From Escherichia coli (GTDB lineage: Bacteria; Pseudomonadota; Gammaproteobacteria; Enterobacterales; Enterobacteriaceae), in assembly GCF_024223415.1 (NCBI RefSeq), contig NZ_CP100501.1: a stretch of DNA of 64,000 bases; one strand, given 5' to 3'. Each line of letters starts with the position of its first letter. The stretch's first letter is position 1. The notes below the pieces were generated by a model. It saw only the letters and a list, made by a program, of their open reading frames with translations, was not told where the DNA came from and made no database searches. Made by a program: the position numbers and the translations under genes. Shown here in pieces: positions 23,321-39,438 of this stretch.

Positions 23321-23672
23321 TTCTAATAACTGAATCCACACACAGTCAAATGTCATTGTTGTGACTAAAAAACGCTCAATTCTCTGAGAGTGTGGCTGTA
23401 TGCCTGCTGTGGACTGCTGTGTCCAGCTTATCCACAGCATTTTGTGCACGGTTCTGTGGACAAAATACCTGGTTACCCAGGCCGTGCCGGCACGTTAACC
23501 GGGCTGCATCCGATGCAAGTGTGTCGCTGTCGCCGGCCTTCTCACCCGGTCACGTTTCGTCGTTCCTCCTCCACGAGCTGCGGCTTCGGGGCCGCACCTG
23601 CATTCGTATGCGGTCGCCCGGTTACAGGTGCGGCACGGCCTGATGGAGGCCGCATGTGAGAGGAGAATTCCC

Positions 23673-24599
23673 ATGCCAAACTGGTGCTCAAATCGTATGT
23701 ATTTTTCTGGTGAACCGGCACAGATTGCTGAGATTAAACGACTGGCCAGCGGTGCAGTCACACCGTTTTATCGCCGCGCCACAAATGAAGGTATTCAGCT
23801 GTTTCTGGCCGGAAGTGCCGGACTTCTGCAGACCACTGAAGATGTGCGGTTTGAACCATGTCCCGGACTGACGGCTGCCGGACGTGGCGTTGTATCGCCG
23901 GAGAATATCGCGTTCACCCGCTGGCTGACATACCTGCAGGACGGTGTACTGCTGGATGAGCAAAACTGCCTGATGCTGCATGAACTCTGGCTGCAGAGCG
24001 GTACTGGACAGCGTCGCTGGGAAGGATTACCGGACGATGTCAGGGATACCATCACCGCACTTTTCACCGCAAAAAGAGGTGACTGGTGTGGCTTCTGGAG
24101 TAACGAAGATGTATCGGTGTGGTGGAACCGTCTGTGTGACAACGTACTGCCGGAAAAAACCATGCCGTTTGACCTGCTGACGGTTCTGCCCACCCGCCTG
24201 GATGTTGAAGTGAATGGCTTTAACGGTGGTGTTCTGAACGGTGTTCCTTCTGCATATCACTGGTATACGGAACGGTATGGCGTGAAGTGGCCTGTGGGGT
24301 ATGAGGTGAATATCAGTAATCAGGGAGACAACTTCATTAAGGTGGATTTCGACACGCCGTGGTGTCAGCCGGAAAGCGACGTTATTGCAGAATTAAGCCG
24401 CCGTTTCAGCTGCACGCTGGAGCACTGGTATGCCGAACAGGGCTGTGATTTCTGTGGCTGGCAGTTGTATGAGCGCGGAGAGCTCGTTGATGTGCTGTGG
24501 GGGGAACTGGAATGGTCTTCCCCGACAGATGACGATGAGCTGCCGGAAGTCACCGGACCTGCGTGGATAGTCGACAATGTGGCGCATTATGGCGGATGA
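23673..24599 (+). CDS. Hypothetical leading-region protein
   Basis: Start MPNWCSNRMYF at ATG 23673 with GAGAGGAG RBS; conserved-looking, function unknown. Confidence 0.6.
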   Translation: MPNWCSNRMYFSGEPAQIAEIKRLASGAVTPFYRRATNEGIQLFLAGSAGLLQTTEDVRFEPCPGLTAAGRGVVSPENIAFTRWLTYLQDGVLLDEQNCLMLHELWLQSGTGQRRWEGLPDDVRDTITALFTAKRGDWCGFWSNEDVSVWWNRLCDNVLPEKTMPFDLLTVLPTRLDVEVNGFNGGVLNGVPSAYHWYTERYGVKWPVGYEVNISNQGDNFIKVDFDTPWCQPESDVIAELSRRFSCTLEHWYAEQGCDFCGWQLYERGELVDVLWGELEWSSPTDDDELPEVTGPAWIVDNVAHYGG

Positions 24600-24981
24600 A
24601 GTATGACGGAGACGGGCGGGCAACTGCCCGTTTCTTTTCCGGTAAAGGATGTCGCCATGCTCCTCTTTTTACTGCGCCGGCTGACGCGGCGCGGCATAAA
24701 CGCTGCCTGTGGTCAGTGTCCCGCGTCCGGTGGGCACGGGACGGGCGCTTTTACCGCTCCCGGCTGGCGTCGGTGACAGTGTACGCCAGCCTGTCGCCCT
24801 TTTCTGATGAACGCCCTTCAAGCCGCTTTCGCGGCATAACCTTGCCGTCAAACAGACGACGGCTGCGGTATTCCACGGTCGGCCTGACCCGTTACCGGAC
24901 GCGGTGAACAGCCCACAGGCAGCGGGGAACGGGCACCACAGGGGTGCCCTCCCGGTGCCCCCTGTAAGAGAAGGAGCTGTT

Positions 24982-25665
24982 ATGTCCCGTTTTATCCTGG
25001 GTGACTGCGTGCGTGTTATGGCCACGATTCCTGATAACGCCATTGATTTCATATTAACCGATCCGCCATATCTCGTCGGTTTCCGTGACCGTTCCGGGCG
25101 CACCATTGCCGGTGACGTTAATGATGACTGGCTGCAACCGGCCTGTAATGAGATGTACCGCGTACTCAAAAAAGACGCGCTGATGGTCAGCTTCTACGGC
25201 TGGCACCGTATTGACCGCTTTATGGCGGCCTGGAAACGCGCCGGATTCAGCGTGGTTGGCCACCTGGTCTTCACCAAAAACTACACATCCAAATCTGCGT
25301 ATGTCGCGTACCGCCACGAATGCGCTTACATCCTGGCAAAGGGCAGTCCGGCCCGGCCCCGTAACCCGCTGCCGGATGTGCTGGGCTGGAAATATTCGGG
25401 CAACCGCCATCACCCGACGGAAAAGCCCGTTACCAGCCTGCAACCGCTGATTGAGAGCTTCACACATCCGAACGCGATTGTGCTGGATCCGTTTGCAGGC
25501 AGCGGTTCAACCTGCGTGGCCGCCCTTCAGTCCGGACGCCGGTATATCGGTATCGAGCTGCTTGAACAGTATCACCGTGCCGGACAGCAACGACTGGCCG
25601 CCGTGCAACGGGCCATGCAGCAGGGGGCCGCGAATGATAACTGGTTTATGCCGGAGGCTGCGTAA
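24982..25665 (+). CDS. Orphan DNA methyltransferase (N6-adenine/N4-cytosine class, beta-group order)
   Basis: DPPY motif near the N-terminus and FAGSGST near the C-terminus; start MSRFILGD with GAAGGAG RBS; no adjacent restriction gene. Confidence 0.85.
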   Translation: MSRFILGDCVRVMATIPDNAIDFILTDPPYLVGFRDRSGRTIAGDVNDDWLQPACNEMYRVLKKDALMVSFYGWHRIDRFMAAWKRAGFSVVGHLVFTKNYTSKSAYVAYRHECAYILAKGSPARPRNPLPDVLGWKYSGNRHHPTEKPVTSLQPLIESFTHPNAIVLDPFAGSGSTCVAALQSGRRYIGIELLEQYHRAGQQRLAAVQRAMQQGAANDNWFMPEAA

Positions 25666-27217: not shown

Positions 27218-27548
27218 GCAGGCTCCGCTTTACTCGGCCATGCGGGGCATGGCCTTGTGGGTTTTCAGTTATGTGGCCTCAGCGTCGTGTGCGGGCTGTG
27301 CCGTGCCTCCATCGTAGCCGGGCTTCTGCGGGCGGGTTGCAAGGTAAGGTGAACCGCTGCGGTCACCCGGTCCCTCCTTCCCGTCTGCCGTGATTTTCCG
27401 GTCGTTCACCCGCTCAGATTTCGCGGTCTCACCCTCCAACTCCCGCCAGCCGTGTGCGTCAGGCTGCGGCTTCCCTTGCGCCCTTGCAACCCTGCAGGCC
27501 CGGCAAAGATGGAGGCACGGCACCGCCCGGTGTCGCGGAATATGTGAA
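27218..27548 (+). repeat. Leading-region repeat family A, copy 1 (single-strand promoter-like)
   Basis: About 330 bp, near-identical by eye to 34139..34478; ends about 17 bp before the klcA start. Confidence 0.6.
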
Positions 27549-27564
27549 CAACGGAGGAAATCCC

Positions 27565-27990
27565 ATGCAGTATGCGAAACCTGTCACCCTGAACGTTGAA
27601 GAGTGCGACCGCCTTTCTTTTCTGCCTTACCTGTTTGGCAACGATTTTCTGTATGCCGAGGCGTATGTGTACGCGCTGGCGCAAAAAATGATGCCGGAAT
27701 ATCAGGGAGGCTTCTGGCATTTCATCCGCCTGCCGGACGGTGGCGGTTACATGATGCCGGATGGCGACCGTTTTCATCTGGTCAACGGTGAAAACTGGTT
27801 TGACCGCACTGTGAGTGCTGATGCCGCAGGCATCATTGTTACGTCTCTTGTGATTAACCGCCAGTTGTGGCTGTACCACGACAGCGGGGATGCGGGACTG
27901 ACACACCTGTACCGGATGCGTGATGCGCAGTTGTGGCGTCACATCGAATTTCACCCCGAATGCAACGCGATTTACGCGGCACTGGACTGA
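27565..27990 (+). CDS. klcA: Antirestriction protein KlcA/ArdB family
   Basis: MQYAKPVTLNVEECDRLSFLPYLFGNDFLYAE... with GGAGGA RBS. Confidence 0.85.
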   Translation: MQYAKPVTLNVEECDRLSFLPYLFGNDFLYAEAYVYALAQKMMPEYQGGFWHFIRLPDGGGYMMPDGDRFHLVNGENWFDRTVSADAAGIIVTSLVINRQLWLYHDSGDAGLTHLYRMRDAQLWRHIEFHPECNAIYAALD

Positions 27991-28456: not shown

Positions 28457-28647
28457 TGAATATCAGCACGGAAACCCGCGAAATTCTGCGTAATTACAGG
28501 GCCGTGATTAATGCGCGGCGTCGTGAAATGGGGCAGAAACCGCTCACCACCGCGCAGATTGTTGATGAAATCTGTGATTTTGTGGCGAATCAGCAGGCGG
28601 TTTTCCTCGGTGGTCACTATATCCTTCAGGGCAGCAGGCACAGGTGA
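28456..28647 (+). CDS. Hypothetical small protein
   Basis: 63-aa ORF overlapping the upstream stop. Confidence 0.4.
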   Translation: MNISTETREILRNYRAVINARRREMGQKPLTTAQIVDEICDFVANQQAVFLGGHYILQGSRHR

Positions 28648-28832
28648 TACAGGGGCAGGCGGTGGAGGCCGCCTGTCAGCCCGCGCGAAAACCCCTGGCA
28701 GGCTGGCGCCTGCCGGAAGGGATGCGGGCCACGCTGGCGCGTCGCCCGTTACCCTTCCTGTTGGTGACAGGCGTTGTTTCAGGAAGTACCTGTTACAGAC
28801 CTGTCGTTAAAGAACCTTCTTACACATGCGCC

Positions 28833-29395
28833 CCTTCGGCTCCCGGCTGCCTGGCGGCATCCGGTCGTCAGGCCCGACTCCGACAGGCAGCTGCTGGCGC
28901 ACCCGCCAGTCTCCGCCGAACCCGCTGGCGCGGTTTCGGGCTGTCGCTACGGTCCGATGCGTGAAAACCCGGGCTTGCAGCGACCGTTCCGGTCGCGCCG
29001 CCTCTGTCGCGCCGTGACCTGCGCTCCCTGCACACCTGACGGTGTGTGAGGAAACTGCGCCTGATGGCGCAGCAGTCCTCCCTCCTGCCGCCACCTCTGC
29101 GGCCTGTTTCCCGCTGTGGACTTTCCGGGGGGCAGACGTAACCCCCTCCCGTTCCATCTGTCCAGGGTGAGATGCACCGGCCACAAAATTTTTAGCCATG
29201 AACCCGGCAAAAAATTTTGCGTCCGCCCCCGGACAGCTGCCCCGTGAGGCGGTAAACGGGCCCCCATCGGAAAGGTCCACTGCGGGGAGAAACCCCTGTG
29301 AAGTGGACGGCAGGAGGAGCTTTCGCTCCTCTGAAGGGGCACATGAACGTCCCGTCGCCGGTATCCGGTTTATCTCACATCTTTCAGTCAGGAGG
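28833..29395 (+). repeat. Leading-region repeat family B, copy 1 (single-strand promoter-like), upstream of ssb
   Basis: About 560 bp GC-rich block, highly similar by eye to 35179..35720 and, over its 3' about 360 bp, to 38229..38585. Confidence 0.6.
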
Positions 29396-29400
29396 TTCTT

Positions 29401-29922
29401 ATGAGTGCACGTGGTATCAACAAGGTCATCCTCGTCGGGCGTCTGGGCAATGATCCGGAAGTCTGTTACATCCCCAACGGGGGCGCAGTGGCAAACCTGC
29501 AGGTCGCCACGTCAGAAAGCTGGCGCGACAAACAGACGGGGGAGATGCGGGAGCAGACGGAATGGCACCGCGTGGTGCTGTTCGGCAAGCTCGCGGAAGT
29601 GGCTGGTGAATATCTGCGCAAGGGCGCGCAGGTCTACATCGAGGGGCAACTCCGTACCCGTAGCTGGGAGGATAACGGTATCACCCGTTACGTCACTGAA
29701 ATTCTTGTTAAGACCACGGGCACCATGCAGATGCTGGGGAGTGCACCACAGCAGAACGCTCAGGCGCAACCGAAGCCTCAGCAGAATGGGCAGCCACAGA
29801 GTGCTGACGCGACGAAAAAAGGTGGCGCGAAAACGAAAGGCCGTGGACGTAAGGCCGCGCAGCCGGAGCCTCAGCAGCCGTCTGAACCCGCGTATGACTT
29901 CGATGACGACATTCCGTTCTAA
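29401..29922 (+). CDS. ssb: Single-stranded DNA-binding protein
   Basis: [21 protein letters not shown]... OB-fold N-terminus, acidic C-terminal tail DFDDDIPF. Confidence 0.95.
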
Positions 29923-29950
29923 CGAAAGACAGTGACAACCGCCCCGTCCA

Positions 29951-30211
29951 GTGCGGGGCATCACCGGAGAGATGAGGATGAGCGAATATTTCAGAATACT
30001 TCAGGGACTGCCTGACGGTCCTTTTACCCGCAAACATGCCGAAGCCGTTGCCGCACAGTACCGGAATGTCTTTATCGAGGATGATCAGGGAACGCATTTT
30101 CGCCTGGTTGTCCGCAATAACAGTGGCCTGGTCTGGCGTACCTGGAATTTTGAGGACGGTGCCGGGTACTGGATGAACCATGCCATCCGTGATTTCGGCA
30201 TTCTTAAGTAA
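29951..30211 (+). CDS. Hypothetical small protein
   Basis: 86-aa ORF between ssb and the ParB-like gene. Confidence 0.5.
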
Positions 30212-30274
30212 GAGAGGTGCCGGACGGGAACGCGTCCGGCAGACATACAACCATCCCGGTCAAAGGAGAAATAT

Positions 30275-32233
30275 ATGTCAGTTACAGAGTCTAAGACAAA
30301 AACGGAGCGTAAATCCAGCCGTAAACCTGCAAAAACGCAGGAAACCGTCCTGTCAGCCCTGCTGGCGCAGACGGAGGAAGTGAGCGTGCCGCTGGCCTCG
30401 CTGATTAAATCACCGCTGAATGTGCGCACGGTGCCGTATTCTGCGGAGTCTGTCAGCGAACTGGCGGACTCCATTAAAGGTGTCGGCCTGTTACAGAATC
30501 TGGTTGTTCATGCCCTGCCAGGTGACCGTTACGGTGTCGCCGCAGGCGGTCGCCGACTGGCTGCACTCAACATGCTGGCAGAGCGTGGCATCCTTACGGC
30601 TGACTGGCCTGTACGCGTGAAGGTTATTCCGCAGGAGCTGGCGACTGCCGCATCAATGACTGAAAACGGTCATCGTCGGGATATGCACCCTGCTGAACAG
30701 ATCGCCGGATTCCGCGCAATGGCGCAGGAAGGCAAAACACCTGAGCAGACTGGCGACCTGCTGGGCTATTCACCCCGCCACGTCCAGCGAATGCTGAAAC
30801 TGGCAGACCTTGCACCCGTCATCCTTGATGCGCTGGCAGAAGACCGCATCACCACCGAACACTGTCAGGCGCTGGCGCTGGAGAACGACACCGCGCGTCA
30901 GGTGCAGGTGTTTGAAGCCGCCTGCCAGTCAGGATGGGGCGGTAAACCGGATGTGCGGGTTATCCGCAACCTGATTACCGAAAGTGAAGTGGCGGTGGCG
31001 GGGAACAGTAAATTCCGCTTCGTGGGGGCTGATGCCTTCTCGCCAGACGAACTGCGCACCGATTTGTTCAGCGATGACGGGGACGGTTATGTCGACCGCG
31101 TGGCGCTCGATGCCGCCCTGCTGGAAAAACTCCAGGCTGTCGCTGAACACCTTCGGGAAGCCGAAGGCTGGGAATGGTGCGCCGGGCGCATGGAGCCTGT
31201 CGGTGAGTGCCGTGAGGATGCCGGAACATACCGCTGTCTGCCGGAGCCGGAAGCGGTGCTGACGGAGGCGGAATACGAACGCCTGAACGAACTGATGACG
31301 CGTTACGACGCGCTGGAAAACCAGTGTGAGGAATCCGACCTGCTGGAAGCAGAAATGAAGCTGATGCGCTGCATGGCGAAGGTCAGAGCGTGGACGCCGG
31401 AGATACGTGCCGGAAGCGGTGTGGTGGTGTCCTGGCGTTATGGCAACGTATGTGTCCAGCGTGGTGTGCAGTTGCGCAGTGAAGATGACGCGACTGACGA
31501 CGCTGACCGCACGGAACAGGTGCAGGAGAAAGCGTCAGTGGAGGAAATCAGCCTGCCGTTGCTGACGAAAATGTCCTCAGAGCGCACGCTGGCAGTCCAG
31601 GCGGCACTCATGCAGCAGCCGGACAAATCCCTGACACTGCTGGCATGGACGCTCTGCCTGAATGTGTTTGGCAGCGGGGCGTACAGTAAACCAGCACAAA
31701 TCAGCCTGGAATGTGAACATTATTCGCTGACCAGCGATGCGCCATCGGGGAAGGAAGGTGCCGCATTCATGGCGCTGATGGCAGAAAAATCCCGTCTTGC
31801 AGCCCTGCTGCCGGAGGGATGGTCACGGGACATGACGACATTCCTGTCCCTCAGTCAGGAGGTGCTGTTATCCCTGCTCAGTTTCTGCACCGCATGCAGC
31901 CTTAACGGTGTCCAGACCCGTGAGTGTGGTCACACGTCACGCAGTCCGCTTGACTCGCTGGAAATCGCTATCGGATTCCACATGCGCGACTGGTGGCAGC
32001 CGACAAAAGCAAACTTCTTCGGACACCTGAAAAAGCCACAAATTATCGCAGCCCTGAATGAGGCCGGACTGTCCGGTGCCGCACGGGACGCGGAGAAGAT
32101 GAAGAAAGGTGATGCGGCTGAACATGCAGAGCACCATATGAAAGACAACCGCTGGGTTCCAGGCTGGATGTGTGCACCACATCCACAGACAGATGCCACT
32201 GAACGCACCGATAACCTGGCTGATGCCGCCTGA
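30275..32233 (+). CDS. ParB/Srx-like nuclease-domain protein of the leading region
   Basis: 652-aa ORF; N-terminal ParB-type block (...LQNLVVHALPGDRYGVAAGGRRLAAL...). Confidence 0.8.
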   Translation: MSVTESKTKTERKSSRKPAKTQETVLSALLAQTEEVSVPLASLIKSPLNVRTVPYSAESVSELADSIKGVGLLQNLVVHALPGDRYGVAAGGRRLAALNMLAERGILTADWPVRVKVIPQELATAASMTENGHRRDMHPAEQIAGFRAMAQEGKTPEQTGDLLGYSPRHVQRMLKLADLAPVILDALAEDRITTEHCQALALENDTARQVQVFEAACQSGWGGKPDVRVIRNLITESEVAVAGNSKFRFVGADAFSPDELRTDLFSDDGDGYVDRVALDAALLEKLQAVAEHLREAEGWEWCAGRMEPVGECREDAGTYRCLPEPEAVLTEAEYERLNELMTRYDALENQCEESDLLEAEMKLMRCMAKVRAWTPEIRAGSGVVVSWRYGNVCVQRGVQLRSEDDATDDADRTEQVQEKASVEEISLPLLTKMSSERTLAVQAALMQQPDKSLTLLAWTLCLNVFGSGAYSKPAQISLECEHYSLTSDAPSGKEGAAFMALMAEKSRLAALLPEGWSRDMTTFLSLSQEVLLSLLSFCTACSLNGVQTRECGHTSRSPLDSLEIAIGFHMRDWWQPTKANFFGHLKKPQIIAALNEAGLSGAARDAEKMKKGDAAEHAEHHMKDNRWVPGWMCAPHPQTDATERTDNLADAA

Positions 32234-32284
32234 TGAACAACCACACCGCCCCGCCGGAGACGGGGCGGCAGCAAGGGAGATACC

Positions 32285-32722
32285 GTGATGAAAACTGAAC
32301 TGACCCTGAATGCCCTGCAGTCCATGAACGCACAGGAATATGAAGATATCCGTGCTGCGGGAAGCGATATGCGCCGTAATCTCACTCACGAGGTGATGCG
32401 TGAAGTGGACGCACCGGCTAACTGGATGATGAATGGCGAGTATGGCAGTGAGTTCGGGGGCTTTTTCCCCGTCCAGGTTCGTTTCACGCCAGCCCACGAA
32501 CGTTTCCACCTGGCATTATGTTCGCCGGGAGACGTCTCTCAGCTCTGGATGCTGGTTCTGGTGAGTGGTGGTGGACAGCCTTTCGCCGTCGTTCAGGTGC
32601 AACATATCTTCACGCCTGTCGCGATCAGTCACACGCTGGCGCTCGCCGCGACACTTGATGCGCAGGGATACAGTGTTAACGACATCATTCATATTTTGAT
32701 GGCAGAAGGAGGTCAGGCATGA
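32285..32722 (+). CDS. psiB: Plasmid SOS inhibition protein B
   Basis: [28 protein letters not shown]...; upstream of and overlapping psiA. Confidence 0.9.
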
Positions 32723-33438
32723 GCGCACGTTCACGGGCACTGATCCCCCTCAGCGCAGAACAACAGGCCGCTATGCAGGCTGTGGCTGTCACCGAACAAC
32801 GTCGTCGTCAGGGACGCACACTTTCAGCATGGCCTTATGCCACCGCTTTCTTTCGCTGCCTGAATGGCAGTCGCCGGATTTCGCTGACCGATCTCCGCTT
32901 TTTTGCCCCTGCGCTGACGAAGGAGGAATTTCATGGCAACCGTCTCCTGTGGCTGGCTGCAGTGGACAAACTGATTGAAAGTTTTGGTGAAGTCTGTGTT
33001 CTTCCCCTGCCATCCGATGCGGGGCATCGTTTGTTCCCGTCCGTTCCTTTTCGTGAAGGTGAGCGGCGTCGTCAGAAAACCACGCTGACAGAGCAGAAAT
33101 ACAGCCGCCAGCGGGAACGTGAGGCAGAACGACGGGAACGGGAATACCAGACATGTTTTGCTCAGGCGCAGATTGACCTTGCGTTTCATACTCCCGCCAC
33201 GGTCGGAAGCTGGTTGTCCCGCTGGTCTGGTGTTGTTGAGGAGCATGATCTGGAAACGATTTTCTGGGGGTGGTGCGGGCGTTTTCCATCACTGTCATCA
33301 TTTGACCGGTTTTTCTGGCAGGAGGAACCACTCTGGCGGTTGATTTTTGAAGCCGGTGAGGCCGGTCGTGGTGCACCGGTACAGGTACGTGCACTTGAGC
33401 AGTGGATGATCCCGAACAAGCTGGAGAACGTAATATGA
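32719..33438 (+). CDS. psiA: Plasmid SOS inhibition protein A
   Basis: 239-aa [25 protein letters not shown]... Confidence 0.9.
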
Positions 33439-34031
33439 TGAAATCAGACGAAAAATACCAGGTTCCCGCGTGGATGCGACCTCTGTTGCCGTTGCTCTGC
33501 AACACCGGGGAGAACGATCCGGAAGAACTGCTGAATGATACAGAAACCACTGCCAGTGCGAATGTTGTCCGTTATGTGCTGATAGTTGCTGTGCGGTCGC
33601 AGGTTGATCTGCTGCAGCTTCTGTACAGGAAAGGGCTGTTGCGCACAGAGATACCAGGTGGCTTTTCACCGGAAGAAGCGCAGGAACTCCTGGATAATCT
33701 GGTGCGCAGCCATATCAGCAGGGCGCTGTCGGGTGAGCGAATGGCAGCCCGTGACAGGAATGCCGATCTGGCCTGGATTCGACAGCAACTGGTCGATGCC
33801 GCCTGGTTTGTCCGTGCCACACTGGAAGCGCATGGGATGAGCGTCGGAAATGAGAGTCCCCCTGCTCAGCCGGAGACAATGCCGGACATACAGACACGGG
33901 AACTGGTGATGTTGATCAAGCGACTGGCATCATCGCTGAAAGCGGTGAAACCGGACAGTTGTGTGGTGCGTGAAGCGCAGGACTGGCTGCGCGACAGAAA
34001 ACTTGTGAGCATCACGGATGTTCTTCGGTGA
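33435..34031 (+). CDS. Hypothetical leading-region protein
   Basis: Start MMKSDEKYQ; overlaps the psiA stop. Confidence 0.55.
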   Translation: MMKSDEKYQVPAWMRPLLPLLCNTGENDPEELLNDTETTASANVVRYVLIVAVRSQVDLLQLLYRKGLLRTEIPGGFSPEEAQELLDNLVRSHISRALSGERMAARDRNADLAWIRQQLVDAAWFVRATLEAHGMSVGNESPPAQPETMPDIQTRELVMLIKRLASSLKAVKPDSCVVREAQDWLRDRKLVSITDVLR

Positions 34032-34138
34032 ACCAGTGGAGGTATGCTTGAGGAGCAGGGACATGCCGGTCATGATCGTTTCGTTCCAGGGGTGGTCTGG
34101 AGATCATGCGGCGTGTCCTCTGCACTCGCCGGAATAAG

Positions 34139-34478
34139 GACGTCGCCGCCGGCTCCGCTTTTACCCGGCCATGCGGGGCATGGCCTTGTGGGTTTTCAGC
34201 TCTGTGGCCTCAGCGTCGTGTGCGGGCTGTGCCGTGCCTCCATCGTAGCCGGGCTTCTGCGGGCGGGATGCAAGGTAAGATGAACCGCTGCGGTCACCCG
34301 GTCCCTCCTTCCCGTCTGCCGTGATTTTCCGGTCGTTCACCCGCTCAGATTTCGCGGTCTCACCCTCCAACTCCCGTCAGCCGTGCGCGTCGGGCTGCGG
34401 CTTTCCTTGCGCCCTTGCATCCCTGCAGGCCCGGCAAAGATGGAGGCACGGCACCGCCCGGTGTCGCAGAACATGTGA
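34139..34478 (+). repeat. Leading-region repeat family A, copy 2, upstream of ardA
   Basis: Near-identical by eye to 27218..27548. Confidence 0.6.
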
Positions 34479-34495
34479 CTATGGAGGATTCGGGA

Positions 34496-34996
34496 ATGTC
34501 TGTTGTTGCACCTGCTGTATACGTTGGAACCTGGCACAAATATAACTGCGGAAGCATCGCCGGCCGCTGGTTTGACCTGACCACGTTTGATGATGAACGC
34601 GATTTTTTCGCCGCCTGCCGTGCCCTTCACCAGGATGAAACCGATCCGGAACTGATGTTTCAGGATTATGAGGGTTTCCCGGGGAATATGGCCTCTGAAT
34701 GTCATATCAACTGGGCCTGGGTTGAAGGCTTCCGCCGGGCACGGGATGAAGGCTGCGAAGAGGCTTATCGTCTCTGGGTGGATGATACCGGTGAGACGGA
34801 TTTTGACAGCTTCCGCGATGCCTGGTGGGGCGAGGCTGACAGTGAGGAGGCTTTTGCGGTTGAGTTCGTCAGTGATACCGGCCTGCTGGCTGACGTGCCG
34901 GAGACGGTGGCGCTCTATTTTGACTATGAGGCGTATGCGCGGGATTTATTCCTGGACTCCTTCACCTTTATTGACGGTCATGTGTTCCGTCGGTGA
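34496..34996 (+). CDS. ardA: Antirestriction protein ArdA
   Basis: MSVVAPAVYVGTWHKYNCGSIAGRWFDLTTFDDERDFF..., strongly acidic 166-aa protein; GGAGGA RBS. Confidence 0.9.
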   Translation: MSVVAPAVYVGTWHKYNCGSIAGRWFDLTTFDDERDFFAACRALHQDETDPELMFQDYEGFPGNMASECHINWAWVEGFRRARDEGCEEAYRLWVDDTGETDFDSFRDAWWGEADSEEAFAVEFVSDTGLLADVPETVALYFDYEAYARDLFLDSFTFIDGHVFRR

Positions 34997-35178
34997 TTTA
35001 CTCCCCCGCTCCGGCGGGGGTATGGCCTGCCGGGCCGCCGGAAAACCCTGGCAGGCTTACGCCTGCCTGAAATACAGGAGGGCCGCGCCTGCGGCGCTGC
35101 CCTTCCTGCCCGTCATGGTGTGAGGCATTTTTCTGTTTTGTCGTTTCTGTTGTTCTGATGCCCGGAGGCGGGGACACC

Positions 35179-35720
35179 CTTCGGCTCCCGGCTGCCTGGC
35201 GGCATCCGGTCGTCGGCCCGACTCCGACAGGCAGCTGCTGGCGCACCCGCCAGTCTCCGCCGAACCCGCTGGCGCGGTTTCGGGCTGCCGCTACGGTCCG
35301 ATGTCTGAAAAACCAGGCCTGCAGCGACCGTTCCGGTCGCGCCGCCCCTGTCGCGCCGGAAACGGCGCTCCCTGCACACCTGACGGTGTGTAAGGCCACT
35401 GCGCCTGATGGCGCAGTCAACCCTTCCGCCGCCACCCCTGCGGCCTGTTTCCCGCTGTGGACTTTCCGGGGGCTGAAGCGGCCACAACACGGGGCAGCCG
35501 TCCAGGGGAGAGATGTACCAGCCACAAAACTTTTTGCCGCAGGCGTCAAAAACTTTTGCGTCTGCCCCCGGACAACTGCCCCGTGCCGTGGCAGTCGCTG
35601 CCCCATCGGAAAGGTCCACTGCGGGGAGAAACCCCGAAGAAGTGGACGGCAGAAGGGGCTTTCGCCCCTCCGGGGGAGCAACCGGTCGGCCCGGCGACCT
35701 GATTCAGCAGAAGGAGACGT
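35179..35720 (+). repeat. Leading-region repeat family B, copy 2
   Basis: Similar by eye to 28833..29395; immediately upstream of the ORF at 35725. Confidence 0.6.
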
Positions 35721-35724
35721 TTTC

Positions 35725-36159
35725 ATGACAGTCAGCAGCACGATTTCCGTTTTTTGCCGAGACGGGGTGTTCCGTACCGTTTACTGCCACCTGCACGGTG
35801 AGCCGACCTGGAACGGTCGCATCCTGCATACCCACTATGCCACCGGTCAGCTGGCCGAAGCCCTGGTTGAACACGGAGATATCCGTTGCCTCGGTCCCCG
35901 TTGCGACAAACCCGCCGGGCATACGCTTCAGAACCCGGTGGACGGTGTGACGGCTTATTACGGACGTGACAGTGGTTTCCGGATGGACAGTGAGGCGCGT
36001 GAGTACCGTTCTTTCAGGGAGGCTATTGCCACTGAAAGCACTGAAGAGGTGCGCTTCCATTATGTGTTCATCGACGGCTACTGGAAGGTGATGTACCGCA
36101 CGCCGGAAGGCTGGAAGATGAAAGCGCTCGCGCTGGCACTGCGTCGCTGTCCGGAATGA
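35725..36159 (+). CDS. Hypothetical leading-region protein
   Basis: Start MTVSSTISVF at ATG 35725 with GAAGGAGA RBS; 144 aa, Cys/His-containing. Confidence 0.6.
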   Translation: MTVSSTISVFCRDGVFRTVYCHLHGEPTWNGRILHTHYATGQLAEALVEHGDIRCLGPRCDKPAGHTLQNPVDGVTAYYGRDSGFRMDSEAREYRSFREAIATESTEEVRFHYVFIDGYWKVMYRTPEGWKMKALALALRRCPE

Positions 36160-36250
36160 AAAAAAGCAGGGCGATAAACCCTGCCTCTCTCCGCCGCTGC
36201 TTCCCGGCCAGGAAGAGCGGCAGTCATCAACAACATAAGGAGAAATATTT

Positions 36251-36517
36251 GTGAGACCATCAATTATCTTCGCAACCGCCGAGTATGTAAAGCGTCTGCG
36301 TGAAGAGTGCCTGCGGGAGAATAAACCCCTGCACCGCCATACCCGCTTCAGACGTCAGGAGCTGGCACAGGATGAGATTAACCCGGACGTCCTGGCGATG
36401 AGCGGTCATATCGCCAGACGCTGCAGTGAGCAGAAGCGGGTGCGTATCCCCGCCATGAAAGTCAGCGAATGGGGCCACCTGCTCCGCGCGCTTGAAATTG
36501 AACGGGTCTGTCACTGA
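36251..36517 (+). CDS. Hypothetical small protein
   Basis: 88-aa ORF from GTG with AAGGAG RBS. Confidence 0.4.
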   Translation: MRPSIIFATAEYVKRLREECLRENKPLHRHTRFRRQELAQDEINPDVLAMSGHIARRCSEQKRVRIPAMKVSEWGHLLRALEIERVCH

Positions 36518-36581
36518 TTAACCCTTGCCGTCTGCCTGTGCAGGCGGCAGGATACGTTCAGACATCTCACCAGGAGGAACC

Positions 36582-37460
36582 GTGAGTAAGAAGAAAAACA
36601 CCACAACGCCCACGCCGCATGATGCCGCGTTCCGGTCGTTCCTGGCGAATCCCGACGTTGCCAGGGATTTTCTGGAGTTGCATCTTCCTGCGGAGTACCG
36701 GCAGTTGTGCGACCTGTCCACCCTGAAGCTGGAACCCGCCACCTTTGTTGAGCCGGACCTGCATCAGTACGCCAGCGATATCCTCTGGAGTGTGAAAACC
36801 ACCGGGGGTGAAGACGGCTATGTTTATACGCTCATCGAGCACCAGAGCACCGAAAATCTGTACATGCCTTTTCGCATGTTACGTTACAGTGTGGCGGCGA
36901 TGCAGAGACATCTGGAGCAGCACAAAACGTTGCCACTGGTCATTCCGGTGCTGTTCTATCACGGTGAGCGCAGCCCGTACCCGTACAGCATGAACTGGCT
37001 GGACTGTTTTGAGAATCCGGCACTTGCGGCTAAAATATACACAAAGCCGTTTCCGCTGGTTGATATCACTGTCGTTGATGACAATGAAATCATGAACCAT
37101 CGCCGGATGGCCGCACTGACGCTGCTGATGAAGCATATCCGCCATCGTGACATGATGGAGCTGCTGGACAAACTCCCGCAGGTCATGGTGGAAATTTCAG
37201 ACGAGCAGGTGCGTGTTCTGATTCATTACATCGTTAACGCAGGGGACACTGTATCACCGGAATTTATGCGGGCGCTGGCCGAGCGCCTGCCGCAGCATGA
37301 GGATAAACTGATGACAATCGCAGAACGTCTTGAGCAGAAAGGTGCGCTTGAAAAAGCCCTGGCCATTGCGCGTCAGCTTCAGAAAATGGGGATGACACCT
37401 GAGCAGATTAAGCAGGCCACCGGACTTTCCGAAGCTGAACTGAAAAAAGTCATTCACTGA
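36582..37460 (+). CDS. Rpn-family (YhgA-like, PD-(D/E)XK) recombination-promoting nuclease
   Basis: Start GTG 36582 after AGGAGGA; MSKKKNTTTPTPHDAAFRSFLANPDVARDFLELHLP... is the hallmark Rpn N-terminus. Confidence 0.85.
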   Translation: MSKKKNTTTPTPHDAAFRSFLANPDVARDFLELHLPAEYRQLCDLSTLKLEPATFVEPDLHQYASDILWSVKTTGGEDGYVYTLIEHQSTENLYMPFRMLRYSVAAMQRHLEQHKTLPLVIPVLFYHGERSPYPYSMNWLDCFENPALAAKIYTKPFPLVDITVVDDNEIMNHRRMAALTLLMKHIRHRDMMELLDKLPQVMVEISDEQVRVLIHYIVNAGDTVSPEFMRALAERLPQHEDKLMTIAERLEQKGALEKALAIARQLQKMGMTPEQIKQATGLSEAELKKVIH

Positions 37461-37521
37461 TGAGAGCATCACAGCCCGGCAAAATGCCGGGCTTTTTGCC
37501 AGCAGGAGCAGAGCAAACAGC

Positions 37522-37728
37522 ATGACGATTGCAGAACGTCTTATACAGAAAGGTTTCGACGAGGGTTTTAAAGAAGGTTTTAAAGAAGGTTTTAAACAAG
37601 GAGCTCTTGAAGTGGCGCGGGAAATAGCCTGCCGGCTTCGGGATATAGGCTGGTCGCCGGAACGGATTCAGGAGGTCACGGGACTTTCCGGTGAAGAACT
37701 GAAAAAGCTGTTTCCTGATGAGCAGTAG
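37522..37728 (+). CDS. Stand-alone small protein resembling the Rpn C-terminal tail domain, with (EGFK)3 repeat
   Basis: MTIAERLIQKG...GWSPERIQEVTGLSGEELKK parallels the Rpn C-terminus MTIAERLEQKG...GMTPEQIKQATGLSEAELKK. Confidence 0.55.
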   Translation: MTIAERLIQKGFDEGFKEGFKEGFKQGALEVAREIACRLRDIGWSPERIQEVTGLSGEELKKLFPDEQ

Positions 37729-37758
37729 CCTGGCATTCAGCCAGGCTGTGAATCACGC

Positions 37759-38010
37759 TCACACATCCTCTGCCGTTTCCCCCAGTTCATTTTCCAGTCG
37801 CCTGATGATATCTGCCTTACGCATCCCCTGCATGTGAGGCAGCAGGTCACGGACTGAAAGTGCCTGGGTGGTCCTCCAGACGGTGACGTCCACCTGTTCC
37901 GCATTTTCCCAGGCGTGCCATGTTCTCTGCGTCACGCCAAATTCTCTGGCCGCTTTTTCGCGTGACCAGAGCATGCTTTTTCGCCAGATTCGCAGTTCCC
38001 ATCCGGTCAT
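37759..38010 (-). CDS. Small putative HTH DNA-binding protein
   Basis: 83-aa ORF on the opposite strand to its neighbours. Confidence 0.45.
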   Translation of the reverse strand: MTGWELRIWRKSMLWSREKAAREFGVTQRTWHAWENAEQVDVTVWRTTQALSVRDLLPHMQGMRKADIIRRLENELGETAEDV

Positions 38011-38228
38011 AAAACACCTTTGAAAAAGTGAAAAAACTTCACTTTATTTTATCATCACAATTGCCAAATCAGCGCGATAAATAAGTGTAAAAAAGTGAAG
38101 AAATTTCACTTTTTTTGGTTGTAAATGTCGTGCGGTTTTCTCTGTTTTCACCTGTGCGGGAGTGGTGTGCCAGTGACCACCACATGCCATTGTTGTGCCG
38201 TCGTTTTTCTTCAGTCGCGCCGGATGCG

Positions 38229-38585
38229 GCGCTCCCTGCACACCTTACGGTGTGTAAGGCCACTGCGCCTGATGGCGCAGCTGCCTCTGCCTGTCTGCCG
38301 CCGCACTGCGGCCTGTTCTCCGCAGACGGACTTTCCGGGGGTACATACACGACCACATCCCGTTTCAGTCGTCCAGGGGAGAGATGTACCAGCCACAAAA
38401 CTTTTTGCCGCAGGCGTCAAAAACTTTTGCGTCTGCCCCCGGACAACTGCCCCGTGACGTGGTGAGCGTCCCCCGTCGGAAAGGTCCACTGCGGGGAAAT
38501 CCCCGAAGACCCGGACGGCAGAAGGAGCTTCGCTCCTCCGGGAAATGACCTGGCTGACCCGGCAGTCGTGACGATGAGGAGACAA
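38229..38585 (+). repeat. Leading-region repeat family B, copy 3 (shorter), upstream of the ORF at 38587
   Basis: Similar by eye to the 3' about 360 bp of the other B copies. Confidence 0.55.
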
Positions 38586-38586
38586 T

Positions 38587-39438
38587 GTGATGAATCAGAC
38601 TTTACCCACTGCTGACCTGAATACTGCCGGCACGACAGATGTTATTCCGTCTGTGGCTATCGACCGCATCATCGCGCAGCGTAACGAAGGTATTGCACTG
38701 TTCATGCAGGCGATGGAATGCCTGGCGACAGCGCGCAGGATTCTGCTCGATGCTTCCGGTGACATTTTTCTCTACGGGTTTGAAGACTGCGTGACTGACT
38801 CCGTTCGATGCATGGATAAACCGGAAGAAGCGAAAAGGAATATCACCCGTCTTGCCGACCGGAAAATCTGGGACCGCCTGATGACAGATACGGGCATGTA
38901 CACCTTCATGAGTTCATGCCAGCGTGATGAGTGGAACAGCCAGCTGATGAGCGACACCTGTCCTGAAATCACCCTGGACAATGTACTGGCAACATTCCGC
39001 CATCTTAATGCCAGCAAGATGCAGACATTTGAACAGGGACTGATTGATGTCTACCGGAAATTGTCATGGGATTACAGAACCAATAATCCCTGCCGTCTGG
39101 GCAAGAAAATCATTATTGAAAACCTGCTGTACCGCTGGAGTAACGGGCGTGTGACGCTGGACTGCAGCAGACGGGAGGCACTGGATGACCTGGTACGTCC
39201 GTTTTATCTGCTGGAGGGGCGCAACGTTCCTGACTTCAGGAACAGCATCGGGGCGCAGTATGGTGAATTTCTCAGGAACGGCGACAATGTCGGTAAGTTG
39301 TTAGAAGGGGAATATTTTACGGTGCGTGGCTACCAGAAAGGGACCGTACACATTGTCTTTAAGCGTTCTGACCTTGTTGAAAAACTGAATGATATTATTG
39401 CACGGCATTATCCTGGTGCATTGCCGCCACGAGTCTGA
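38587..39438 (+). CDS. Hypothetical protein; first plus-strand leading-region gene next to oriT
   Basis: 283-aa ORF with GAGGAG RBS, directly behind B-repeat copy 3. Confidence 0.65.
   Translation: MMNQTLPTADLNTAGTTDVIPSVAIDRIIAQRNEGIALFMQAMECLATARRILLDASGDIFLYGFEDCVTDSVRCMDKPEEAKRNITRLADRKIWDRLMTDTGMYTFMSSCQRDEWNSQLMSDTCPEITLDNVLATFRHLNASKMQTFEQGLIDVYRKLSWDYRTNNPCRLGKKIIIENLLYRWSNGRVTLDCSRREALDDLVRPFYLLEGRNVPDFRNSIGAQYGEFLRNGDNVGKLLEGEYFTVRGYQKGTVHIVFKRSDLVEKLNDIIARHYPGALPPRV

Follow-up and report, generated by a model that had tools for sequence, protein, structure and literature searches.

Three long GC-rich repeats lie in a 64-kb window of Escherichia coli DNA (contig NZ_CP100501.1; the window is the whole stretch that was analysed, 64,000 nt), which is an IncI1-complex conjugative plasmid. 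What are these repeats? The initial annotation, made from the letters alone, took them for elements of the Frpo/ssi type, able to fold in the single strand as it enters the cell and to switch on early transcription. Our analysis leaves little doubt that they are the already described ssi3, ssi2 and ssi1 of this plasmid group (Frpo family, class 1 ssDNA promoters, also called ssp1) and that they act as early promoters; nothing about them is new.

Extent, similarity and identity of the repeats

The window contains three direct-repeat copies, which we name A, B and C, and no further copy was found in the 64 kb. Pairwise alignment gave 86.4% identity between A (28832-29331) and B (35177-35670) over 501 nt (E = 2e-168). 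For B (35350-35674) and C (38214-38542) the identity was 85.0% over 333 nt (E = 6e-100), and for A (29003-29331) and C (38211-38538) it was 79.6% over 334 nt (E = 1e-71). The high similarity seen by eye in the initial annotation was therefore borne out. Its block starts were exact for A and B, but C was placed at 38229 and truly starts at 38211-38214. The blocks had also been called GC-rich, and the cores have 63-65% GC against 52.4% in the whole window. All coordinates are collected in Table 1.

Table 1. Positions of the repeats, their predicted structures and neighbouring features in the 64-kb window.
Feature	Position	Strand	Remarks
Class 3-like element	~24670-24969
Class 2 elements	27229-27528, 34160-34459
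Copy A upstream extension	28832..29003		common to A and B only; several short hairpins
Copy B upstream extension	35177..35347
26-nt hairpin module	28977-29002 (copy A), 35321-35346 (copy B)
Copy A core	29004..29334	minus	ColIb-P9 ssi3 (listed 'Frpo3', AJ238399.1:11381-11711); upstream of ssb
Copy A long imperfect hairpin	29081..29317	minus	237 nt, 90 pairs; tip loop 29205-29198
Candidate -35-like hexamer TGGACA	29159..29164	minus	5/6 matches; T-strand 3' arm, copy A
Equivalents of candidate -35, both TGGACG	35499-35504 (copy B), 38370-38375 (copy C)
ssb (plasmid)	29401..29922	plus	first operon gene after copy A; NCBIfam NF010292, E = 1.9e-110
ParB-like gene	30275-32233		copy A operon
psiB	32285-32722		copy A operon; NCBIfam PsiB NF010255
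psiA	32719-33438		copy A operon; NCBIfam PsiA NF010258
Copy B core	35348..35672	minus	ColIb-P9 ssi2 (listed 'Frpo2', AJ238399.1:4353-4678); upstream of 144-aa ORF
Copy B long hairpin	35421..35657	minus	237 nt, 98 pairs; tip loop 35543-35540
144-aa ORF	35725..36159	plus	first gene after copy B; AAGGAG ribosome-binding site 8 nt before ATG
Copy C core	38212..38540	minus	ColIb-P9 ssi1 (listed 'Frpo1', AJ238399.1:1459-1787); upstream of DUF4942 gene
Copy C uninterrupted upper hairpin	38327..38488	minus	162 nt, 62 pairs; outer closure ~38522-38291; tip loop 38414-38411
DUF4942-domain protein gene	38590..39438	plus	after copy C; Pfam PF13708, E = 2.3e-52
oriT nick-region motif ACATCCTGTCCCG, IncI1-type	39996..40008	minus	exact match, minus strand only
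nikA	40092-40424		adjoins nick motif
nikB	40436-43138		adjoins nick motif

Copy C is shorter because it lacks the 172-nt 5' extension of A and B. This extension has 73% GC, folds with a z-score of only -2.1 and ends in a 26-nt hairpin module. The module is missing from copy C and is identical in the F plasmid.

The blocks had been described as ending at start codons. As drawn they do touch these codons, but the repeat homology stops about 50-67 nt short of them, at ~29334 before the ssb ATG at 29401 (copy A), at ~35672 before the ATG at 35725 (copy B) and at ~38540 before the ATG at 38590 (copy C). The genes that follow were expected to be ssb and two unknown genes, and ssb, a 144-aa ORF without a family match and a DUF4942 gene were indeed found there. 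In the operon after copy A, ssb is followed by a DUF905 gene, the ParB-like gene, psiB and psiA. The 144-aa ORF had no match in NCBIfam or Pfam, and the ColIb-P9 and pESBL annotations call it hypothetical; after it lie an ORF of 88 aa and a gene for an Rpn-family nuclease (36525-37460). Copy B sits 3' of ardA, which is itself served by another repeat family.

The copies were compared at full length with ssi3, ssi2 and ssi1 of ColIb-P9, whose sequences were taken from the supplement of published work. Identity was 99.4% for A (331 nt), 89.3% for B (326 nt) and 99.4% for C (329 nt). Against the pESBL copies it was 99.1%, 89.6% and 99.4%, respectively, so that pESBL ssi3 and ssi1, which have published activity, share 99% identity with copies A and C. 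Copy B represents a sequence variant of ssi2 with an F-like mid-stem. It differs from the tested ssi2 precisely in this mid-stem, where pairing is kept, and copies 100% identical to it are present in other E. coli plasmids. F ssiD aligned with copies B and C only (72-74% over 116-135 nt), whereas F Frpo1 and Frpo2 together matched the window copies in segments at 77-95%. This homology to ColIb-P9 ssi1-3 and to F ssiD/Frpo is that of class 1 elements.

Transferred strand, fold and covariation

An exact match to the motif ACATCCTGTCCCG, which we take to be an R64-type nick region, is present beside nikA and nikB. Copy C has its 5' end 1461 nt away from this motif, and the corresponding coordinate in AJ238399.1 numbering is 1459; this agreement corroborates the R64-type reading. 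Since the motif lies on the minus strand next to nikA and nikB, the minus strand is the transferred strand (T-strand). Since all genes downstream of the repeats are on the plus strand, the T-strand is also the template of the leading-region genes. Copy C is the nearest of the three to oriT, at 1.5 kb from the nick, followed by copy B at 4.3 kb and copy A at 10.7 kb. The leading regions of ColIb-P9 and pESBL are collinear with the window. Like class 1 elements, the copies are thus found close to oriT in the leading region, and the T-strand is the template of the genes that follow them. Position and orientation fit Frpo/ssi-type elements, as the initial annotation had proposed, and this reading is also supported by the near-identity to ColIb-P9 ssi3, ssi2 and ssi1 and by the T-strand fold described below.

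Folding of the T-strand as DNA gave minimum free energies of -113.2 kcal/mol for copy A (29000-29400, z = -8.9), -126.9 kcal/mol for copy B (35344-35740, z = -10.1) and -109.8 kcal/mol for copy C (38208-38600, z = -8.0). The z-scores were computed against dinucleotide shuffles. The T-strand was more stable than its complement by 14-18 kcal/mol in the three copies and by 9-12 kcal/mol in both F elements. The claim that the repeats fold in the incoming single strand is upheld by these predictions. When T-strand windows of 300 nt were folded along 22.0-40.4 kb, the deepest minima were the three copies (-98.6, -111.4 and -91.6 kcal/mol) on a background of -51 +/- 14 kcal/mol. The hairpin of copy A was also seen as a match of the sequence to its own reverse strand. 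In the predicted folds, the 3' arm of copy A has an unpaired bulge at ~29178-29168. Copy B has a 10-nt bulge, GTACATCTCT, at 35518-35509, and the bulge GTACATCTCT recurs in copy C at 38389-38380. Each core is predicted to form a T-strand hairpin of about 240 nt, and the copies share the long stable stem-loop (~330 nt) of class 1.

The stem is kept through compensatory changes, which is a further property of class 1. Among 83 pairs common to A, B and C, 71 are invariant, 4 have one-sided changes, 8 are compensatory and none is broken. Variable columns among the three copies made up 20 of 166 paired columns and 72 of 170 elsewhere. For 11 family members taken together, 90.8% of cells were paired, compared with 40-50% when the partners were slid. 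Double changes were found in 12 of 23 consensus pairs in the 11 relatives, and 0 of 500 shuffles reached the observed values. The relatives with compensatory stem changes were those from F, Serratia, Salmonella and an insect metagenome.

Promoter boxes and other readings of the repeats

No linear sigma-70 promoter with at least 9 of 12 matches was found inside the repeats on either strand by a simple scan that is blind to weak or non-canonical promoters. Judged by sequence, the repeats appear to be without a conventional duplex promoter. Class 1 stems are described as reconstituting -35 and -10 boxes, with mismatches near the -10; strict and relaxed scans of the repeats found no convincing hexamers of this kind. 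With low confidence, we prefer as putative boxes TGGAC(A/G), a spacer of 17 nt and then a weak hexamer; at this distance 3' of the TGGAC(A/G) candidates, weak hexamers lie on predicted internal loops. The candidate -35 hexamer is within the CCC(C)TGGAC / GTCCGGGG helix, which is the same in copies A-C, ColIb ssi2 and F Frpo1 and differs little in remoter relatives. In the relaxed scan, the best positionally conserved pattern was T(G/A)GACN, 16-17 nt and a hexamer with a preceding TG, which makes a poor -10; in F Frpo2 this pattern requires a 3-nt spacer bulge. The alternatives TTG(Y)GG, 15-17 nt, TGGACN and, on the 5' arm of F-type elements, TTGAGA-N17-19 were equally conserved in position.

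The repeats could be single-strand initiation sites only, which supply primer RNA for the complementary strand and have no role as mRNA promoters. Frpo was first isolated as the priming signal ssiD, and the RNA made from it stays in RNA-DNA hybrids, which DNA polymerase III can use in vitro (PMC7690428). Early conversion near Frpo-controlled loci is reported to be rifampicin-sensitive in vivo (bioRxiv 10.64898/2026.01.09.698686). However, deletion of Frpo1 or Frpo2 abolishes early production of downstream proteins in published work, whole operons are induced downstream of ssi1-3 in RNA-seq, and full-length pESBL mRNAs from the hairpin start through ssb to psiA are already reported. Each copy also stands 50-67 nt before a correctly oriented gene with a ribosome-binding site. 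A primer-only role is very improbable; we regard priming as an additional activity of one and the same promoter and not as a competing explanation. We give as small a chance to a role at the level of plus-strand RNA, in which the repeats would be structured 5' leaders or a small RNA that regulates the translation or stability of the downstream genes. The gene-proximal hairpin arm is probably within the 5' UTR and the plus-sense RNA is stable too (-156 to -179 kcal/mol with RNA parameters), but the minus strand is consistently more stable with DNA and RNA parameters alike. Selection for G-T pairs on the transferred strand would be expected to produce such an excess. Moreover, with a start inside the hairpin the plus-strand RNA would hold one arm only, and Rfam at gathering thresholds matched no family in 28800-38600; the only matches in the window (sok, ALIL and AgrB) lie elsewhere.

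It is still less likely that the repeats are mobile or recombinogenic palindromic elements (REP- or MITE-like) or ParB-like binding sites with no promoter role. The copies are long palindromic repeats, a ParB-family gene is part of the copy A operon, and sequence has been exchanged between positions and plasmids: the copy at the ssi1 position of pDR19cip is 95% identical to copy A. Transposase genes, terminal repeats and target duplications are nevertheless all absent, the positions relative to the same genes are fixed in F, ColIb-P9 and pESBL, and published deletion and reporter data demonstrate promoter function. The least probable reading is that the repeats are protein-coding or coding remnants. 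In its favour, both strands have ORFs of 100-330 codons running across the copies, for example a 247-aa minus-strand ORF at 34998-35741 and a 333-aa plus-strand ORF at 35158-36159, and RefSeq 'hypothetical protein' annotations overlap copy A and its extension. The initial annotation had regarded such ORFs as spurious, and we agree. Indels between the copies are of 1, 2 and 5 nt, and substitutions between A and B are even over codon positions (23/19/20). The ORFs crossing A and B differ in frame relative to the alignment and do not correspond, annotated ORF ends vary between plasmids, and high GC alone accounts for long open frames.

Relation to known elements and proposed mechanism

The ssi1-3 elements of ColIb-P9, R64 and pESBL (Bates et al. 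1999; Nasim et al. 2004; Wen et al., NAR 2025, PMC12672017) are the same elements as copies C, B and A. Order from oriT, downstream genes, strand and predicted hairpin are all as in the window. They do not differ in kind from the window copies, of which B is an 89% variant of the reference ssi2.

In F, Frpo1 (= Frpo, ssiD) and Frpo2 (Masai & Arai 1997; Couturier et al. 2023, PMC9849209) have a homologous hairpin tip, GTCCGGGG/CCCCTGGAC helix and bulge (70-80%), and they carry the exact 26-nt upstream hairpin module too. Frpo2 precedes ssb, as copy A does, and the T-strand is more stable than the complement in the F elements as in the window copies. On the other hand, BLAST did not align the hairpin's lower half or the small hairpins that flank it. 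There are two copies in F against three in IncI, and the genes downstream of Frpo1 (ygeA and a DUF932 gene) are unlike those of IncI ssi1 and ssi2.

Class 2 (ssp2 / 'Frpo3') and class 3 ssDNA promoters follow the same principle of a long leading-region T-strand hairpin driving zygotic induction. Class 2 also roadblocks complementary-strand synthesis, which UvrD relieves (bioRxiv 10.64898/2026.01.09.698686). Class 2 and class 3 promoters precede klcA/ardB, ardA and an M.EcoGIX-like methylase gene, and class 2 and class 3-like elements are also present in the window (Table 1). Their sequences have no homology to copies A-C. The minus-strand origin of filamentous phages (f1/M13) and the ssoA-type single-strand origins of rolling-circle plasmids drive no gene expression, and their only product is a short primer for DNA synthesis. 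We know of no sequence homology between these origins and the ssi/Frpo copies. These origins are likewise folded ssDNA with promoter-like hairpins that host RNA polymerase recognises, making an RNA on a single-stranded template (see PMC7690428).

For the copies in the window, recognition by RNA polymerase, ssDNA-specific activity, mapped starts and priming would follow by analogy with the literature. Initiation by sigma-70 RNA polymerase on the single strand and element-dependent early, transient expression have been reported for F (PMC9849209) and pESBL (PMC12672017). With pESBL ssi1-3, operons were induced up to ~500-fold, and the starts were mapped by 5' RACE and early-conjugation RNA-seq in transconjugants (PMC12672017). 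Frpo-driven acrIIA4 rescues transfer only if it is carried by the T-strand within the leading region (PMC11541004).

In the proposed mechanism, the minus strand, starting at the nick (close to position 40000), would enter the recipient with its 5' end leading and bring in copy C after ~1.5 kb, B after ~4.3 kb and A after ~10.7 kb. While single-stranded, each core would fold into a long imperfect hairpin with an A/T-rich tip, the conserved GTCCGGGG/CCCCTGGAC helix and an unpaired 3'-arm bulge. The stem would mimic duplex promoter DNA and be bound by host sigma-70 RNA polymerase, which would use the same strand as template and move towards oriT. Copy A would serve the ssb-psiB-psiA operon, copy B the 144-aa ORF and Rpn operon, and copy C the DUF4942 gene. 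The transcripts may prime complementary-strand synthesis as well. Synthesis of the second strand would then iron out the hairpin and turn the promoter off, so that expression would come as a transient burst.

Copies of the repeat and their plasmid context

Repeat finding, three-way alignment and all-against-window BLAST revealed exactly three direct copies in the 64 kb, which we call A, B and C, and no further ones. A (28832-29331) and B (35177-35670) were 86.4% identical over 501 nt (E = 2e-168), B (35350-35674) and C (38214-38542) were 85.0% identical (E = 6e-100), and A (29003-29331) and C (38211-38538) were 79.6% identical (E = 1e-71). These alignments bear out the high similarity described in the initial annotation. 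Its block starts were exact for A and B, but C begins about 15 nt earlier than it had placed it. The blocks had also been said to reach within a few bp of start codons, whereas the homology stops 50-67 nt short. C is shorter than A and B because it lacks a 172-nt 5′ extension that the other two share. Each copy also matched its own opposite strand over ~240 nt (67-69% in A and B) and is thus a long imperfect palindrome. The GC content is 63-65% in the cores and 73% in the extension, compared with 52.4% in the window.

Five reference Frpo/ssi sequences were taken from the supplement of Samuel et al. 2024 (PMC11541004), and three of the five were matched end to end by the window copies, as listed in the table. 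These full-length ColIb-P9 matches confirm the proposed Frpo/ssi type: the copies are class 1 members, the elements named ssi1-3 in 1999. Box assignment and duplex inactivity aside, the defining class 1 features that could be tested here were found. The three repeats are a correct observation that was already known, and the window adds nothing new. In Frpo1 (ssiD) and Frpo2 of the F plasmid, the hairpin tip region is 70-80% like the window copies and an upstream segment 95%. The B variant was found 100% identical in other E. coli plasmids. There are signs that copies exchange sequence between positions. In pDR19cip, the copy at the ssi1 position (locus L001, 23532-23859) is 95% identical to window A 29003-29331 (ssi3 type), rather than to C, and the mid-stem of window copy B (35421-35657) is F-like on both arms, with pairing preserved.

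The window is collinear with IncI1-complex plasmids, and its best PLSDB matches are conjugative MOBP/MPF_I plasmids of E. coli. The gene order is the same as in ColIb-P9 and pESBL-EA11: methylase, klcA-type antirestriction gene, ssb, DUF905, ParB-like gene, psiB, psiA, ardA, 144-aa ORF, Rpn, DUF4942, nikA and nikB. The motif ACATCCTGTCCCG, which we take to be the R64-type (IncI1) nick region, occurs exactly once, on the minus strand, so the minus strand is the transferred strand (T-strand). The start of C lies 1461 nt from the putative nick, and ssi1 has been published at coordinate 1459 of AJ238399.1; this agreement supports the nick and strand assignment. The T-strand would enter 5′ end first, from about position 40000 toward lower coordinates, and would be the template for the plus-strand leading genes.

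Positions of the repeat copies and of associated features in the window
Feature	Position	Remarks
Core of copy A	29334-29004	99.4% over 331 nt, full length, to ColIb-P9 'Frpo3' (ssi3); 99.1% to pESBL-EA11; operon: ssb, DUF905, ParB-like gene, psiB, psiA
Core of copy B	35672-35348	89.3% over 326 nt, full length, to ColIb-P9 'Frpo2' (ssi2); 89.6% to pESBL-EA11; operon: 144-aa ORF (no family match), 88-aa ORF, Rpn-family nuclease
Core of copy C	38540-38212	99.4% over 329 nt, full length, to ColIb-P9 'Frpo1' (ssi1); 99.4% to pESBL-EA11; gene: DUF4942 protein
5′ extension	A 28832-29003; B 35177-35347	
26-nt hairpin	A 28977-29002; B 35321-35346	GCAGCGACCGTTCCGGTCGCGCCGCC
GC hairpin	28686-28718; 35039-35071	CCTGGCAGGC-NNNN-GCCTGCC; 85% identical
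Loop of tip helix	A 29205-29198; B 35543-35540; C 38414-38411	
Unpaired bulge, 3′ arm	A ~29178-29168; B 35518-35509; C 38389-38380	GT(A/G)CATCTC(T/A)
Candidate -35 site	A 29159-29164; B 35499-35504; C 38370-38375	TGGAC(A/G)
ORFs crossing A and B	28644-28964; 35158-36159	plus
Putative nick motif	40008-39996	minus
Second repeat family	27229-27528; 34160-34459	97% identical; 32-nt inverted arms 174 nt apart; T-strand fold z = -4.9
klcA/ardB-type gene; ardA	~27565-27990; ~34496-34996	
Class 3-like hairpin	~24670-24969	T-strand, -91.9 kcal/mol (300-nt window)
Marginal T-strand peak	23380-23679	-75.6 kcal/mol
A/T-rich inverted and direct repeat	38012-38116	AAAAAGTGAAAAAACTTCACTTT
Helix-turn-helix gene	37759-38010	minus
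Promoter-like site	38028-38055	plus; GTGAAA-16-TATCAT
12-nt tandem repeat, three units	37550-37597	AAGGTTTTAAAG-like
68-aa ORF	37522-37728	
Segment shared by Rpn gene and 68-aa ORF	37311-37343; 37522-37554	
sok antitoxin RNA (Rfam)	58936-59092	
ALIL pseudoknots (Rfam)	6132-6218; 44391-44477; 50042-50158	IS3-family frameshift signals
AgrB (Rfam)	55817-55904	

Folding of the transferred strand

Folded as ssDNA, the T-strand of each copy formed one dominant long hairpin, with an MFE of -113.2 kcal/mol for A, -126.9 kcal/mol for B and -109.8 kcal/mol for C (z of -8.9, -10.1 and -8.0 against dinucleotide shuffles), so the single-strand folding proposed in the initial annotation holds. The hairpin has an A/T-rich tip helix of ~21 bp, an unpaired bulge of ~10 nt on the 3′ arm, a helix in which (C/T)TGTCCGGGG pairs with CCC(C)TGGAC, a long lower stem interrupted by small internal loops, and three small GC hairpins on the T-strand 3′ side. 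Between A, B, C, ColIb ssi2 and F Frpo1 the (C/T)TGTCCGGGG helix does not differ, and remoter relatives show few changes in it. Compared with its complement, the T-strand is more stable by 14-18 kcal/mol in A, B and C and by 9-12 kcal/mol in both F elements; RNA parameters gave a difference in the same direction. An asymmetry of this kind would be expected had G-T pairs been selected for on the transferred strand.

Hairpins were also mined after Wen et al. along the T-strand from 22.0 to 40.4 kb, using 300-nt windows, a coarse step and a threshold of -75 kcal/mol. A, B and C were among the deepest minima (-98.6, -111.4 and -91.6 kcal/mol, against a background of -51 +/- 14), and the remaining peaks coincide with class 2 and class 3 positions.

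A set of 83 base pairs recurs in all three independent MFE folds. Among these, 71 are invariant, four carry one-sided changes, and in eight both sides change but still pair; no pair is broken. Of the paired positions, 20/166 columns vary, compared with 72/170 elsewhere. We then aligned 11 sequences, comprising A, B, C, ColIb ssi2, F Frpo1 and Frpo2, and the Serratia, insect-metagenome and Salmonella candidates of Samuel et al., for which RNAalifold gave a consensus of 23 pairs. Paired cells amounted to 90.8% over the 11 sequences compared with 40-50% when partners were slid by 1-3 columns, double changes occurred in 12 consensus pairs compared with 3-6 in the slid controls, and 0/500 column shuffles reached the observed covariation values, in a test that leans towards the structure, since it was predicted on the tested alignment. 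The slid controls and the independent pair count within the window point the same way as the alignment covariation. The pattern TGTCCNGGGN{40,70}CCCTGGAC, applied to genome contigs for diverse relatives, was rejected as too degenerate; the matches listed were chance hits in GC-rich DNA (Streptomyces, assorted MAGs).

Two other readings of the conserved repeats were weighed against a ssDNA hairpin. Plus-strand ORFs do cross A and B, but their frames disagree relative to the alignment. The indels separating the copies are 1, 2 and 5 nt long, and substitutions between A and B fall 23/19/20 by codon position. The indel lengths, the absence of codon periodicity and the non-corresponding frames rule out coding repeats and agree with the earlier view that the long ORFs inside them are spurious. 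A structured plus-strand RNA is disfavoured by the strand asymmetry, together with the lack of an Rfam match to the repeats.

RefSeq 'hypothetical protein' CDSs run across the extension and the ssi3/Frpo2 start in three plasmid loci (L001 13963-14265, L005 8467-8838 and L002 7808-8164), with ends and strands that vary from plasmid to plasmid. These are probably high-GC annotation artefacts, and ssDNA promoters are the appropriate annotation for the region. The Rfam matches elsewhere in the window are listed in the table; the three ALIL pseudoknots imply at least three IS copies.

Candidate promoter boxes and the upstream extension

The Frpo ssDNA stem-loop is described as offering E. coli RNA polymerase its -35 and -10 boxes (Masai & Arai 1997, as relayed in PMC9849209 and PMC7690428). 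According to the same sources, transcription initiates at the stem-loop and the RNA is able to prime DNA synthesis. For pESBL, PMC12672017 reports six leading-region operons induced up to ~500-fold within 15 min. In three of the six, expression is driven from ssi1-3, members of the strongest class (class 1), with one start per ssi1-3 operon mapped by 5′ RACE, and in a uvrD mutant the delayed ss-to-ds conversion led to longer induction. A Frpo-driven anti-CRISPR gene protects the plasmid only if it is on the T-strand in the leading region (PMC11541004). Given the 99% identity of A and C to the pESBL elements, and their shared context, the same mechanism would apply in the window. By this analogy, we accept the early-transcription role that the initial annotation had assigned to the repeats.

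A strict consensus scan, which does not reach weak or non-canonical sites, found no sigma-70 promoter inside the repeats on either strand. This fits duplex inactivity and implies reconstituted boxes that are weak or else broken up by bulges. A relaxed scan of the 11-member alignment gave several weak, mutually incompatible -35/-10 candidates. The conserved TGGAC(A/G) of the 3′ arm has 4-5/6 matches to the -35 consensus and lies directly below the A/T-rich tip, which would occupy the UP-element position. All three copies have an internal-loop hexamer 17 nt downstream, and in B and C a TG stands before it. With low confidence, TGGAC(A/G) and this hexamer are our candidate -35 and -10 boxes. The hexamers (TTACGT, CCGCTT and TCGTGT) are poor, the candidate spacer in F Frpo2 requires three bulged nucleotides, and the position of an alternative, TTG(Y)GG - 15-17 nt - TGGACN, is equally conserved.

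Topologically, the hairpin allows two geometries. The 3′ arm may be the non-template strand, with transcription running from tip to base and into the gene; alternatively, with the 5′ arm as non-template, transcription would run up the hairpin and around the loop. We favour the 3′ arm because the class 2 hairpin of the window, unrelated in sequence, has a recognisable TTGCAA ... TACGAT on its 3′ arm, because the working Frpo2-acrIIA4 construct (Samuel et al., PMC11541004) lacks the lower third of the hairpin, and because of the 3′-arm placement of TGGAC(A/G) and its downstream hexamer.

The extension of A and B terminates in the 26-nt hairpin GCAGCGACCGTTCCGGTCGCGCCGCC. It is base-for-base identical upstream of F Frpo1 and Frpo2 and in ColIb-P9, pESBL and pDR19cip, having stayed so while the promoter hairpins diverged to ~70%. 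Its occurrence is confined to class 1 promoters into which an upstream operon of the same orientation runs, and copy C (ssi1) has none. The boundaries published for ssi and ssiD, including those of the F ssiD fragment active in vitro, leave it outside, and the Frpo2-acrIIA4 construct works without it, so the 26-nt hairpin may be a module of its own. Missing from C, from the active fragment and from the construct, it seems dispensable for promoter activity. That the whole 172-nt extension is a separate functional module, not a promoter part, is a doubtful reading, whose strongest sign is the cross-plasmid identity of GCAGCGACCGTTCCGGTCGCGCCGCC. Such a module could insulate the promoter from read-through or complementary-strand synthesis coming from upstream, or could be a ssDNA binding site for a protein of the host or the plasmid. 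As a whole the extension is weakly structured (fold z just -2.1), which does not support a strongly structured element.

The CCTGGCAGGC hairpins lie shortly 3′ of the stop codons of the genes preceding A and B. From this sequence likeness, the duplicated unit may extend beyond the upstream edge of the obvious repeat by ~140 nt, and the hairpin may be a 3′-end or terminator structure of the upstream operons.

Further ssDNA promoter candidates and biological meaning

Copies of a second repeat family precede the klcA/ardB-type antirestriction gene and ardA. With 87-88% identity they match the two pESBL hairpins found at corresponding positions, which the literature describes as class 2 ssDNA promoters (ssp2 / 'Frpo3'), and the family is identified as the class 2 promoter pair. 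Another strong T-strand hairpin lies directly upstream of the methylase gene, an M.EcoGIX homologue ending at 25665. This position is that of the published class 3 ssDNA promoter, and the predicted hairpin is class 3-like. A marginal T-strand peak is given in the table.

The sole conventional promoter-like site found near the repeats is inside an A/T-rich repeat between the helix-turn-helix gene and copy C. This A/T-rich stretch may serve as an operator or a duplex promoter. The 12-nt tandem repeat falls within a 68-aa ORF whose similarity to Rpn-family proteins is confined to their C-terminal end and which repeats the end of the preceding Rpn gene. From its sequence, this ORF looks like a partial gene duplication.

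Two of the three copies are 99% identical to experimentally mapped elements. The ssDNA promoters of conjugative resistance plasmids are an active research topic, with papers from 2023 to 2026. They explain how SSB, SOS-inhibitor and anti-restriction functions are expressed within minutes of entry, before the second strand exists.
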